A program made the position numbers and the translations under genes. Positions 19,149 through 22,523 of a stretch of 64,000 nt of DNA are shown in pieces. The DNA is taken from sequence record PP434429. The stretch is one strand, 5' to 3'. Within the stretch, counting starts at the first letter, position 1; each line of letters begins with the position of its first letter. Source of the stretch: Escherichia phage LH01. Under the pieces are notes generated by a model. The model saw nothing but the letters and a program-made list of their open reading frames with translations. It searched no databases and had not been told where the DNA came from.

Positions 19149-19397
19149 TTATTCTTTTTCGCGAATAATAATTACTTGTTGAGGCTGCTGAGCAGATTTC
19201 TTTTCGGCGACGATAGACCAAATTAAAGTTCCAATCCAACCAATCATCGTCCAGTTAAAGAGTAAAGATACAAAGAAGATTGCTGTTGTGCTTTTTGTGC
19301 CACGAATAAGTGCGATTACCCAAGGCAACATGTAAATGATGATTGAACCAATACCTGCGATTAAAACTGCTACTGAACTAGCTACGAATAATTCCAT
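19149..19397 (-). CDS. small inner-membrane protein
   Basis: 82-aa ORF; two hydrophobic helices with GWIGTLIW segment, polar C-terminus. Confidence 0.5.
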   Translation of the reverse strand: MELFVASSVAVLIAGIGSIIIYMLPWVIALIRGTKSTTAIFFVSLLFNWTMIGWIGTLIWSIVAEKKSAQQPQQVIIIREKE

Positions 19398-19458
19398 GTT
19401 AATTTCCTCTTGATTTGTTATGTTTATAGTATCTTGGTTTAACTTTGGTGTAAACCAA

Positions 19459-19827
19459 TTAATTAAATTTGTTTAAACGTTCAATACACTGGACGTAGTT
19501 ATTCGCGATTTGTTTCTGGGTAGGCTCTTTACCAGTTGTTTCAACATAGCGAATAAATGCGATTTCAGTAGCCTGTAGACAATGTTCTTTAACGCGTTGT
19601 TCTTTTGACATAGCTACAGTATCAGAGTCACGATAACGTTGAGCATGAGCATCAGCTTGAATCATTCGATTACCTACAGTAACCGGGTCTTCCACTTCAA
19701 CTTTAGGTTGGTTGTACTGTTTAACATTCGGATTGTAAATCAGTTGGCCAACGTTATTAGGGATAAAACCATGAGCACCACATCCGGTTAATCCAAATAC
19801 CATTGCTAAAGCGATTAATTTTTTCAT
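19459..19827 (-). CDS. lipoprotein
   Basis: start at ATG for MKKLIALAMVFGLTGC (lipobox LTGC) with GAGGAA RBS. Confidence 0.55.
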   Translation of the reverse strand: MKKLIALAMVFGLTGCGAHGFIPNNVGQLIYNPNVKQYNQPKVEVEDPVTVGNRMIQADAHAQRYRDSDTVAMSKEQRVKEHCLQATEIAFIRYVETTGKEPTQKQIANNYVQCIERLNKFN

Positions 19828-19855
19828 TTCAATTTCCTCTATAGTTGATAGGTCT

Positions 19856-19885
19856 ATAGTATCACTACCATAGACCCCTGTAAAC
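19856..19885 (-). promoter_or_regulatory. early-type promoter (-35 GTTTAC, -10 TACTAT)
   Basis: GTTTAC, about 18 nt, TACTAT upstream of the lipoprotein gene. Confidence 0.45.
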
Positions 19886-19897
19886 AATTATTTTATT

Positions 19898-20038
19898 TTA
19901 TTCCTCGTCTTCATGCTCGTAAGCATGTTCTTCAGATTCACGGTCGCAGTCTAAACAAGTCGCATTATCATATGCATCGAAAACAGCTTCGTCTTCATAG
20001 ACGCTACAACCACACACTACACATTCTACTTCTTCCAT
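19898..20038 (-). CDS. small acidic Cys-rich (zinc-ribbon-like) protein
   Basis: 46 aa from internal ATG (MEEVECVVCGC...CLDCD); RBS and spacer nearly identical to the next gene. Confidence 0.4.
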   Translation of the reverse strand: MEEVECVVCGCSVYEDEAVFDAYDNATCLDCDRESEEHAYEHEDEE

Positions 20039-20039
20039 T

Positions 20040-20243
20040 TTAGATTTCCTCTTTACGCCAATCGGATTCAAAAACTTTCTTATCATCAACAAATGCTTCA
20101 ACTAAAGCTTTATTTACTTCAGCAAATTGAGAAGTGGCCCGTAGGATTTGGTCTTTATCAGACACGTCCATGGTAACTTCTTTGGTAAACATATTCCCAT
20201 TTTCAAACCAACCAATAAACAACACTTTAGCCATATTTTCCAT
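20040..20243 (-). CDS. Dmd-like antitoxin candidate
   Basis: 67 aa from ATG for MENMAKVLFIGWF...EVNKALVEAFVDDKKV; size, composition and location between 61 and 41 fit T4 Dmd as I recall it. Confidence 0.45.
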   Translation of the reverse strand: MENMAKVLFIGWFENGNMFTKEVTMDVSDKDQILRATSQFAEVNKALVEAFVDDKKVFESDWRKEEI

Positions 20244-20244
20244 T

Positions 20245-20562
20245 TTAGATTTCCTCACAGAAGGCCCATTCAGCGTGATAAACTGTAGCACCTTTAGTAT
20301 CATTCATTTGAACTACGTCTACCGGAGAAATTACTCGATAGAGACGTGGTTCACCTCCATAAGAGCGTGCTGCTCGTCCTGCATAAATCTTTGCTAAACC
20401 GATATCTTCAGTAAAGAATACACGATCCAAGTTTTTCTTACGTCCAGTTTCAGACAGAACTCCTGTTTCTTCAGGAGGACAAAGCATGTTTTCGATGTTA
20501 GCTGAACTACTTGAACCGTGATAAAAAATCTTAAATTCTGCTTTACAATCGATGGTTTTCAT
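20245..20562 (-). CDS. hypothetical protein with HGS/FFT/E motifs
   Basis: 105-aa ORF; FYHGSSS, RVFFTED and YHAEW segments loosely reminiscent of minimal ART/2'-phosphotransferase-type NAD-binding folds. Confidence 0.5.
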   Translation of the reverse strand: MKTIDCKAEFKIFYHGSSSSANIENMLCPPEETGVLSETGRKKNLDRVFFTEDIGLAKIYAGRAARSYGGEPRLYRVISPVDVVQMNDTKGATVYHAEWAFCEEI

Positions 20563-20588
20563 TTTGTTCTCCAGTAGTTGATAGGTCT

Positions 20589-20617
20589 ATAATAACACAA
20601 CTACTGGAGAAGTAAAC
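20589..20617 (-). promoter_or_regulatory. early-type promoter (-35 GTTTAC, -10 TATTAT)
   Basis: minus-strand motif about 27 nt upstream of ATG 20562. Confidence 0.4.
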
Positions 20618-20992
20618 TTAAAAACGTAATTTAGATATATCTGCGTTGATTTCGTTTTGGTTTGCGTCGTATGCAATTAAACGAACCGCTTTAGATGGGT
20701 CATTCAATGCATAGAAATGATGGAACATTGCTCGAACGATATCACCATTTACGAGTTCTACCTGGATAGGAGAACCTTTTTCGAGTTGGAAATGTTCATA
20801 AGCTTTGATGGTTCGCAGATAATCAAGTTTTTGATTTCCGGCTCCGACAATTTGTACGATACGTTTGCCCATGTTTTCCATACGAGATACAATAGTTTTA
20901 GGGGCAAGAATAACGTAGGTTGCCAGTGGAGAAACTACTTCAACAGTTGTGTTTTCTGTGATTGCAGTAAAAATTGCTTGAGACATATTCAT
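20618..20992 (-). CDS. hypothetical protein
   Basis: 124-aa ORF with ATG start. Confidence 0.5.
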   Translation of the reverse strand: MNMSQAIFTAITENTTVEVVSPLATYVILAPKTIVSRMENMGKRIVQIVGAGNQKLDYLRTIKAYEHFQLEKGSPIQVELVNGDIVRAMFHHFYALNDPSKAVRLIAYDANQNEINADISKLRF

Positions 20993-21021: not shown

Positions 21022-21051
21022 ATCATATCATGCCTAGAGGAAGATGTAAAC
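21022..21051 (-). promoter_or_regulatory. early-type promoter (-35 GTTTAC, -10 TATGAT)
   Basis: motif between the gene 41 terminator hairpin and ATG 20992. Confidence 0.4.
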
Positions 21052-21058
21052 CCCGAAA

Positions 21059-21074
21059 GGAGACCGAAGTCTCC
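21059..21074 (-). terminator. GGAGAC(UUCG)GUCUCC hairpin after gene 41
   Basis: perfect 6-bp stem with UUCG loop 7 nt downstream of the gene 41 stop. Confidence 0.35.
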
Positions 21075-21080
21075 TTTTTA

Positions 21081-22523
21081 TTAAAATTTTAGCTCATTGG
21101 CTAAGCTATCTAGGTCAGCACGTGTTGCTTTGGCTTTACCTACGCGTTCCGTACGATTCACCTCTGCCTGACGCATCTGAGCACCTGCGTTTTCATTTAC
21201 GGTGTTAGGTGTGTTCATGCCTTCTTGCTCAATCTCAATCCATTTCTGGTTGCCTTTACGTACACCCATCAGGAATTTATTCCACTTATTCTTATCACCA
21301 TATCGTGATTTGATTTGTTTGATAAGTTGTTGTTCAGCTTGTGCAAGTTCTTCGGTTTCAATTACGGCCAACATGAAATCTGCCGTTGCTGGTAAACCTG
21401 CTGATTCTGCAATATCACTCATGTTCATATCCGAAGCATCCCATGCTGCACGTCCTACTTGAGCTGCAGTCCATAGAACTGTTTCAGATTCTACTGCTAA
21501 TGCACGAAGTTCTTCTGCGATAGCTTTAACTAATGTGTAGCTATTTTCAGTGTAAACTCTGATACGACAAGACCCACAAATACCTAAGTAATCAACCATG
21601 ATTACAGATGGCACAAAGTTCTTCTTGAGTTTCAATTCATTAAGCAATGCACGGAATGTATTAGCATTAGCTCCGCCGGTAGGATACTGTTTAACTACTA
21701 AACGTCCTAATGTGGATTTTGAACGCCATTTTTCCATCTTGGCTTTATATTCAGCATAAGATACGTTACCATCATCAATATCATCAAGTGATACATCAAG
21801 CATGTTTGCATCTATACGCTTAGCGCAAACTTCTTCGGCCATTTCCATGGAAATATAAAGAACATTATGACCTGTTTGAAGATAATCTGCAGCAAGTGAA
21901 CAAAGGCCTAAAGATTTACCAACGTTAACACCCGCCATTAAAACGTTTAGTGTACCGGTTTCGGCACCACCTTTGGTGATTTTATTCAAAATGTTTAATT
22001 TGAACGGGACCTTACGTGCTTTATTTAGATAAGAAAGCCAGCGTGCTTCGTAGTCTTCCATCCAGTCATGTCCAACATAACTATCGAACGAAATTGAAAG
22101 CGCTTGACGCATAATATCAGGAATAGCTCCTACGTCAGGCATTTTCTTGTTACGTTGTTCTGGAGGTAGTTCAGCATTAGACTGAATCTCAATGATTTTG
22201 GATGTAGCATTATACATCGCTTTTTGCTGGACATATTTCTCAGTTTCTTTAACCAGCCATTCATGGTCTTCAGGAGTATCAGCCAATTTTTCAATTAGGT
22301 CTGAAGTTCCTTTATATTCAGCTTCAGTTAAAGAACTGTTATCTAAAGCCACCTTTAATGCATTGATAGATGGCATTGCATTATATTCGTTAACGTGGCT
22401 CTTTATAATTTTAAAGACGTTTTTTGCCGGTCCACGCTCAAAGTAATCAGAATCCATATAAGGCCAGACCTTAGAAAAATAAGCCTGGTCGTATACTAGA
22501 TGAGACAAAATAATTTCTACCAC
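21081..22523 (-). CDS. 41: replicative DNA helicase (DnaB-like)
   Basis: 480-aa ORF; Walker A GVNVGKS, RecA-like core; GTG start preceded by TAAGGAG. Confidence 0.9.
   Translation of the reverse strand: MVEIILSHLVYDQAYFSKVWPYMDSDYFERGPAKNVFKIIKSHVNEYNAMPSINALKVALDNSSLTEAEYKGTSDLIEKLADTPEDHEWLVKETEKYVQQKAMYNATSKIIEIQSNAELPPEQRNKKMPDVGAIPDIMRQALSISFDSYVGHDWMEDYEARWLSYLNKARKVPFKLNILNKITKGGAETGTLNVLMAGVNVGKSLGLCSLAADYLQTGHNVLYISMEMAEEVCAKRIDANMLDVSLDDIDDGNVSYAEYKAKMEKWRSKSTLGRLVVKQYPTGGANANTFRALLNELKLKKNFVPSVIMVDYLGICGSCRIRVYTENSYTLVKAIAEELRALAVESETVLWTAAQVGRAAWDASDMNMSDIAESAGLPATADFMLAVIETEELAQAEQQLIKQIKSRYGDKNKWNKFLMGVRKGNQKWIEIEQEGMNTPNTVNENAGAQMRQAEVNRTERVGKAKATRADLDSLANELKF

Follow-up and report, generated by a model that had tools for sequence, protein, structure and literature searches.

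In T-even phages, counter-defence genes are known to reside in the interval between the helicase gene 41 and the primase gene 61. In phage T4, it reads 41, dmd, 61.4, sp, 61.2, 61.1, 61, and three of its genes have a proven counter-defence role: dmd against RnlA and LsoA, 61.4 (tifA) against ToxN, and 61.2 (adfA) against DarT (PMC9391042). T4 Dmd (gene 61.5), an inhibitor of the HEPN RNase toxins RnlA and LsoA for which both a solved structure and a complex with LsoA are available, is encoded downstream of gene 41. Here, we analyze the equivalent segment, positions 19,898 to 20,562, of a 64,000-nucleotide (nt) stretch of Escherichia phage LH01 (record PP434429; ‘the window’ throughout), where a 105-amino-acid (aa) protein of predicted ADP-ribosyltransferase (ART) fold, a 67-aa Dmd, and a 46-aa Cys-rich protein are encoded in succession and connected by a reiterated junction.

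Iyer, Burroughs, Anantharaman, and Aravind (Viruses 14:1977, 2022; PMC9503650) described a ‘p0068-family ART’ beside Dmd in phages of Escherichia, Shigella, and Salmonella, and proposed on computational grounds that the two form a toxin–antitoxin (TA) pair; the ART was placed in the H-Y-[EDQ] clade and speculated to act on RNA (PMC9503650). With respect to gene traffic, the T4 dmd-tifA locus amplifies under selection via microhomologies of 6–10 bp (PMC9391042, Srikant et al. 2022), and promoter–stem-loop (PeSL) cassettes mediate gene shuffling in phages RB49 and phi1 (PMC2839356, Arbiol et al. 2010). Both Dmd, a textbook gene, and an ART beside it, predicted in 2022, were already known. The present analysis adds a structural and profile link between the 105-aa protein and Arr, evidence against an obligate TA pair, and the recognition of the 46-aa open reading frame (ORF) as a conserved Cys-rich gene. 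It also adds comparative evidence that the duplicated junction may be a conserved cassette boundary, whose apparent role in dmd swapping is a modest new detail.

The three-gene segment downstream of gene 41

The ~1.7-kb stretch surrounding the segment matches Shigella phage Shf125875, as well as several Escherichia Mosigvirus phages, at 99.8% identity, and we assign the window to a Mosigvirus, i.e., an RB69-like T-even phage. All genes of the locus lie on the minus strand, in the transcription order 41, ORF041c-like, ORF040c-like (ART), dmd, 46-aa gene, imm.1, imm, and spackle. The ART gene (20245–20562, minus strand) encodes the homologue of RB69 ORF040c (phrog_2110), with the motifs FYHGSSS and FFTED and a C-terminal CEEI. 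The 67-aa dmd (20040–20243, minus strand) starts at an ATG inside a listed 87-aa ORF, and the 46-aa gene (19898–20038, minus strand; phrog_13952) starts at an ATG inside a listed 67-aa TTG ORF. A preliminary description of the window, made from the letters alone, had proposed these ORFs of 105, 67, and 46 aa, and all three are present as described.

Taking the proposed functions and the junction together, we consider it likely that the three genes constitute an immediate-early accessory operon, located in the variable stretch that separates gene 41 from gene 61. A consensus scan locates an early sigma-70-type promoter-like site upstream of the ART gene (20589..20616, minus strand; TTTACT, 16-nt spacer, TATTAT, and an upstream TG) and none on the minus strand between it and position 19884, where the next early site (19856..19884, minus strand; TTTACA, 17-nt spacer, TACTAT) heads the imm.1 unit. 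Since no minus-strand promoter-like site occurs before 19884–19856, the ART gene, dmd, and the 46-aa gene would form one early unit. The ART promoter-like site sits inside a PeSL-like stem-loop (20562..20616, minus strand) with 19-nt arms (20562–20580 and 20598–20616) that are 89% complementary and flank a 17-nt loop. Compared with other Mosigviruses, the variable segment extends from the dmd start to the downstream promoter, near which similarity resumes; the site at 19856..19884 marks the downstream end of both the three-gene operon and the variable segment.

The middle gene was described beforehand as resembling T4 dmd, and the alignments bear this out. The 67-aa protein is 62% identical to T4 Dmd (E 2e-24) and matches the Pfam Dmd profile PF17587 over positions 3–59 of 60 (E 6.4e-23; 81.3 bits vs. 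a cut-off of 27), the PHROG Dmd family (E 3e-32), and the solved Dmd chains 5hy3_B (E 1.7e-18) and 5i8j_A. On this evidence, the 67-aa protein is identified as Dmd and, by homology, would block the host RnlA/LsoA RNase toxins. It differs from the T4 protein in length, 67 aa vs. 60 aa, and in having a C-terminal extension, Lys-Glu-Glu-Ile, whose codons include the ribosome site for the gene that follows. In addition, dmd is preceded by the ART gene in the window, whereas T4 dmd has its own promoter. The allele is rare, with at least 95% identity in just 9 of the 795 Dmd-carrying records retrieved by tblastn, and it is only 56–69% identical to the Dmd of other Mosigviruses. The body of the protein is closest to the allele of the Tequatrovirus HY01, with both ends replaced by junction sequence.

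The mini-ART and its relation to Dmd

An AlphaFold2 model of the 105-aa protein, computed on 30 homologues, has a predicted local distance difference test score (pLDDT) of 86 and a predicted template modelling score (pTM) of 0.77, and the third match of this model among viral models is annotated as a rifampin ADP-ribosyl transferase. A profile of the wider family, searched against the PDB, reaches Arr as its sole family (E 0.028; PF12120; PDB 2hw2 and 9iaf), which suggests that the 105-aa protein is a divergent minimal relative of Arr. In the alignment, H15 falls on Arr H19 and F49, of FFT, on Arr Y49, while an E-x-G-R loop and a V-[FY]-x-T motif are common to both. Pfam Arr-ms (PF12120) is matched by 14 of 30 wider-family members (best E 3.1e-8), three full-length relatives scoring above the 25-bit cut-off. 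Because these wider relatives match Arr-ms and the 105-aa protein does not do so directly, it would represent a related divergent lineage rather than Arr proper; it also differs from Arr in having Phe in place of Tyr49 and in being ~40 residues shorter.

The preliminary description had likened this protein to H-Y-E-type NAD-utilizing folds, and at the level of the fold the likeness holds: FYHGS contains the strand-1 His, and Phe49 of FFT lies on Arr Tyr49. It had also named PARP, Tpt1, and DUF3990 as families for comparison. The ART fold was recovered, but PARP and DUF3990 were rejected as nearest families, given that Arr and Tpt1 score higher, and by sequence the nearest family is Arr. Tpt1/KptA enzymes use an Arg-His-Arg-Arg catalytic tetrad in which an Arg directly precedes the strand-1 His. 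In the phage protein, the residue before H15 is nearly always Tyr, with no Arg-His pair, and no sequence match to Tpt1/KptA was found; membership in that family was rejected, the likeness being limited to the fold.

Homologues of the 105-aa protein occur in 609 phage records, typically at 60–100% identity, from phages infecting Escherichia, Klebsiella, Acinetobacter, Aeromonas, and Vibrio. Residues invariant among the T4-like homologues include H15, G16, E38, G40, R41, K43, N44, F49, T51, D53, Y60, R63, G69, G70, and E103. The strand-1 His-Gly of the NAD+-binding motif (H15, G16) is invariant in 30 T4-like and 30 wider-family sequences alike. At the strand-2 position, an invariant Phe, F49, corresponds to Arr Y49, preserving the aromatic ring but neither hydroxyl nor imidazole, and Y60, 11 residues further on, is also invariant. 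The ‘late Glu’ singled out in the preliminary description, E103, is invariant within the T4-like clade, but roughly half of the wider-family sequences have Val, Ile, Lys, or Ser at this position. Since its invariance is confined to one clade, a catalytic role for E103 is uncertain; the acidic residue that is invariant family-wide is E38, in a loop. Between JS98 and WG01, the ART gene has accumulated 12 synonymous and 0 non-synonymous changes, and the ratio of non-synonymous to synonymous substitution rates (dN/dS) is at most 0.14 in all pairs, indicating strong purifying selection. In the Shf125875 record (NC_025437.1, 3215–3664), the ORF annotated for the ART spans 149 aa and overlaps dmd, and the matched stretch measures 1,702 bases vs. 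1,701 in the query. Because nearly all homologues are 96–112 aa long, this probably reflects a one-base frameshift of sequencing or annotation and no true extension.

An exhaustive profile search retrieved 221 representatives of the family, including stand-alone proteins of ~100–140 aa and domains that form part of longer proteins, the longest having 3,924 aa. P0168, P0165, P0139, and P0143 exemplify the embedded forms, among them giant multidomain phage proteins, and in three cases the matching segment passes the Arr-ms threshold. The Arr-like domain is also found with a lambda-type portal domain on one side and a 2H phosphoesterase on the other, and flanked by ART-PolyVal and Nudix domains. 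These embedded contexts suggest virion-delivered or injected effector versions of the mini-ART. The genomic context of two distant stand-alone relatives (P0125 and P0123) was uninformative.

As for function, the 105-aa protein most likely binds NAD+ and would act early in infection, transferring ADP-ribose to a conserved target of host or nucleic-acid nature. Since the gene belongs to the early class and the phages are lytic and infect Gram-negative hosts, a role in rifamycin resistance is unlikely. A sequence-level relationship to AcrF11, a phage anti-CRISPR ADP-ribosyltransferase (PDB 6kyf), was not detected either, and nothing ties the 105-aa protein to CRISPR. Several observations tell against an active transferase related to Arr. 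In direct searches, the 105-aa protein has no match in Pfam at E-values up to 1 and none in NCBIfam, and PDB sequences returned nothing for either the single sequence or a T4-like profile, so that its sequence link to Arr is transitive, through the wider family, or weak. Likewise, catalysis is not assured for a protein that carries Phe in place of the strand-2 Tyr of Arr and belongs to a family with no universally conserved acidic residue at the canonical catalytic position.

These features would also fit a protein that keeps the ART fold without transferase activity and either sequesters NAD+ or an ADP-ribose-derived immune signal, as a sponge, or hydrolyzes NAD+. The conserved H15-G16, F49, Y60, and several Arg and Lys residues mostly fit nucleotide binding; no catalytic Glu or Asp is universally conserved, E103 being replaced in about half of the wider family; and the protein is very small, 96–105 aa, whereas the solved Arr chains have 143 aa and the AcrF11 chain has 137 aa. 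However, the closest folds are those of Arr and Tpt1, both of which are active as transferases and also lack the classical Glu. Moreover, E38, which is invariant, and the GRKKN loop are suggestive of a second, specific substrate, and fusion of the domain into multidomain effectors fits an enzyme. We therefore regard loss of transferase activity as improbable, and retain an ADP-ribosylating early effector as the preferred function of the mini-ART.

A different role for the pair was put forward in the 2022 proposal, in which the ART, perhaps acting on RNA, is a toxin and Dmd doubles as its cognate antitoxin besides blocking RnlA/LsoA, i.e., a phage-borne type II TA pair (PMC9503650). The pair in the window is most likely the p0068 pair, since no other ART adjoins dmd in these phages. 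Our analysis differs from that study in finding the strongest sequence and fold links to Arr and Tpt1 rather than to the H-Y-[EDQ] clade. In several GenBank records, the gene already carries the product name ‘ADP-ribosyl transferase’ or ‘rifampin ADP-ribosyl transferase’. A literature search found no experimental work on it, and for ‘ORF040c’ returned only comparative-genomics mentions and unrelated matches.

The organization of the genes is what a TA pair might predict: they are adjacent and coupled, with a stop codon, one base, and a start codon, or an ATGA stop/start overlap in phiC120, and no promoter-like site in between. Many ART-fold proteins are also toxins. However, the two genes neither co-occur obligatorily nor co-evolve. 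Yersinia phage TG1 has the order 41, ART, spackle without Dmd; a metagenomic contig, L018, has the ART gene followed directly by the 46-aa gene, without dmd; and the ART loci of Klebsiella, Acinetobacter, Aeromonas, and Proteus phages have other neighbors. Klebsiella, Acinetobacter, and Aeromonas fall outside the ten most frequent organism names among the Dmd matches, whereas 246 of their records carry the ART, bearing in mind that distant homologues of a protein as short and fast-evolving as Dmd may be missed in such absences. Conversely, T4 and HY01 have Dmd without ART. Where both genes are present, ARTs that are 98–100% identical are paired with Dmd alleles only 47–69% identical, and one phage carries two Dmd alleles. 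It looks as if Dmd tracks diverse host toxins and the ART tracks a conserved target. With no obligate co-occurrence or co-evolution, we rank an independent early effector above a toxin neutralized by Dmd. The comparative data thus argue against an obligate pair, and a TA function for these two genes seems to us doubtful.

Heading the dmd operon, strongly conserved, and present in some 600 sequenced phages, the mini-ART is accordingly a good candidate for an uncharacterized early effector.

The repeated junction and the traffic of dmd alleles

The ART–dmd and dmd–46-aa boundaries are built from the same 19-nt sequence, GAGGAAATCTAAAATGGAA. The first copy (20238..20256, minus strand) comprises the last three ART codons, TAA, one base, and the ATG GAA of dmd; the second (20033..20051, minus strand), identical over all 19 nt and 205 nt away, has the same layout one gene further on, from the final three codons of dmd through its stop and a single base to the ATG GAA that opens the 46-aa gene. 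Read on the coding strand, both copies are GAG GAA ATC TAA A ATG GAA, i.e., Glu-Glu-Ile, stop, one base, and Met-Glu, and the Shine-Dalgarno GAGG is embedded in the upstream coding sequence, within the Glu-Glu-Ile codons. In the window, GAGGAAATCTAAAATGGA occurs exactly twice (20034–20051 and 20239–20256), and, allowing up to 3 mismatches, 3 occurrences are observed vs. 0.12 expected, a count of 3 being reached in none of 100 shuffles. A duplicated initiation region together with its upstream codons had been recognized in the preliminary description. It is confirmed here as an exact 19-nt repeat and extended by the finding that the C-terminal Glu-Glu-Ile of Dmd tracks the 46-aa gene.

The same arrangement recurs in another genus. 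Dhakavirus JS98, WG01, NC-G, IME281, and IME08, together with two metagenomic contigs, share the order 41, ART, dmd, 46-aa gene, and in these seven loci GAGGAAATCTAAATG follows both the ART gene and dmd. Dmd proteins without a downstream 46-aa gene, as in T4, HY01, phiC120, and moskry, lack the C-terminal Glu-Glu-Ile, whereas those with a 46-aa gene have it; phiC120 has nothing after dmd, and moskry has an unrelated 70-aa gene. Given this distribution of Glu-Glu-Ile on Dmd, dmd appears to have received a copy of the last ART codons along with the ribosome site and the start codon. The moskry ART–dmd junction and the JS98 dmd–46-aa junction are identical over 25 nt, a stretch that covers the first four codons (Met-Glu-Glu-Phe). 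Furthermore, both copies in the window read TAAAATG, with an extra A, whereas both copies of every Dhakavirus locus and the single moskry junction read TAAATG. The shared extra A suggests that, within this lineage, one of the two sites was copied or converted from the other, and conservation at both positions in Dhakavirus argues that the junctions are homologous, not convergent. That each gene independently evolved an optimal ribosome-site/stop/start without duplication is highly improbable. In its favor, stop and start codons commonly overlap or abut in T4-type phages, and many starts in this phage have GAGGAAAT ahead of the ATG (9 sites in 64 kb, every one of them on the minus strand). Against it stand the continuation of the identity for 11 more bases, CTAAAATGGAA, which occur nowhere in the window but at these two sites, the Glu-Glu-Ile distribution, the shared extra A, and the 25 nt common to moskry junction 1 and JS98 junction 2.

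The reiterated junction would couple the three genes translationally, having arisen by copying of the ART–dmd junction onto the end of dmd. Relatives display the arrangements expected from recombination between junction copies (‘J’ below), and fit such an origin. A deletion-type arrangement, ART-J-46aa without dmd, is present in contig L018 of Logan SRR5149961 (905–1360), from a T-even relative. A tandem arrangement, ART-J-dmdA-J-dmdB-J-46aa, is found in Salmonella phage vB_SalM_ABTNLsp5, whose two dmd alleles (469–663 and 664–867) are 55% identical and correspond to the WG01 and JS98 types, each of which is single in those phages; the first is annotated as ‘translational repressor protein’. 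Finally, the window itself has an allele-replacement arrangement, with a Tequatrovirus-like dmd body between two junctions. Since T4-type phages recombine at very short homologies, we propose that the junction repeats act as linkers for the loss, duplication, and replacement of dmd. The comparison establishes homology of the repeats, and their use as actual crossover sites is deduced from the arrangements. Against this proposal, the arrangements are comparative snapshots of different phages, not observed events, and selection for an efficient coupling signal also helps to keep the repeats alike.

Like PeSL cassettes, which serve in insertion, deletion, and amplification, the junction is a short conserved sequence flanking accessory genes. 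Unlike them, it contains neither promoter nor stem-loop and sits inside one operon, whereas PeSL-like elements bound the operon as a whole (20562–20616 and ~19842–19884). As the junction is composed of translation and not transcription signals, a swapped cassette would inherit coupling, not transcription signals of its own. In this respect, the junction offers a natural example of very short repeats by which antitoxin alleles could be lost, exchanged, or stacked in a phage, and complements the laboratory evolution result for T4 dmd-tifA.

A bolder version combines a promoter-less linker that lets T-even phages swap anti-defence genes, and stack Dmds, within a coupled operon with a mini-ART that is the smallest active ADP-ribosyltransferase and has a new counter-defence or take-over function. 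As a joint claim, this is possible but tentative. If true, the mini-ART would modify a conserved host RNA or protein target, and two Dmd specificities would be stacked in one phage. Neither the mini-ART nor the junction overturns current understanding, and their importance would grow only if a new substrate or a role in counter-defence were demonstrated for the mini-ART.

The Cys-rich gene and flanking features

The 46-aa protein matches phrog_13952 (E 2.5e-29) and is narrowly distributed, in 33 phage records from this Mosigvirus sub-lineage and Dhakavirus, and in only three clusters among 5.8 billion proteins. In an alignment of 10 orthologues, C6-x2-C9-x-C11, C28-x2-C31, and the DNATCLDC motif are invariant, forming two CxxC-type knuckles of conserved spacing, and dN/dS is 0.05–0.09. 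These values indicate that the gene is real and under purifying selection. With 18 Asp or Glu residues vs. one Arg, and a very acidic tail, the protein is extremely acidic. Its AlphaFold2 model, run with 4 sequences, contains short hairpins and a helix (pLDDT 78.5). The best Foldseek match is not significant (E 0.23), although the top matches are all small zinc domains (PHD-like, RING, the ClpX zinc-binding domain, and ZZ), and the NCBIfam zinc-binding family ECs_2282_CxxC gives a weak, sub-threshold match (E 0.004; 17 bits vs. a cut-off of 37). Thus, the 46-aa product is probably a small zinc-binding protein. As a candidate further anti-defence factor, it could plausibly be a small zinc-stabilized binder or mimic, a role that is pure inference. 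In some relatives (L016, 2627–2650; L018, 1349–1362), Glu-Glu-Ile also forms the C-terminus of the 46-aa protein (GAAGAAATT), nearly repeating the junction codons, and the gene is followed by an early promoter and no coupled gene.

On the upstream side of the operon, between gene 41 (gp41 helicase, 21081–22523, minus strand) and the ART gene, lies the gene of a 124-aa ORF041c-like protein (20618–20992, minus strand; phrog_10668) with its own early promoter-like site at 21050–21022. The gene is found in Mosigviruses and is absent from Dhakavirus and T4; contig L018 has a 125-aa gene at the same position upstream of the ART gene. The 124-aa protein belongs to no Pfam or NCBIfam family, and its gene is a further accessory-gene candidate. 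Just 3′ of the gene 41 stop, at ~21050–21085, the minus-strand transcript contains a GC-rich hairpin, GGAGAC-UUCG-GUCUCC, which abuts the -35 of the next early promoter in a PeSL-like manner; it was spotted by eye and not flagged by the terminator scan. Terminator-like hairpins inside coding sequence, at 20460–20477 and 19990–20003, were rejected, their number being within the shuffle expectation.

On the downstream side, a listed 142-aa TTG ORF is actually the 122-aa lipoprotein gene imm.1 (DUF5481; 19459–19827, minus strand), with its start at MKKLIALAMVFGLTGC and a lipobox Cys, positioned between the variable segment and the superinfection-exclusion genes imm and spackle. A further minus-strand promoter-like site follows at 19454–19426. 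From one unit to the next, the early promoter and leader regions are themselves repeated, over 27 nt at 89% identity (19842–19868 and 20575–20601) and over 54 nt at 74% identity (19380–19433 and 19810–19863), and could provide extra short homologies for gene shuffling in this region.

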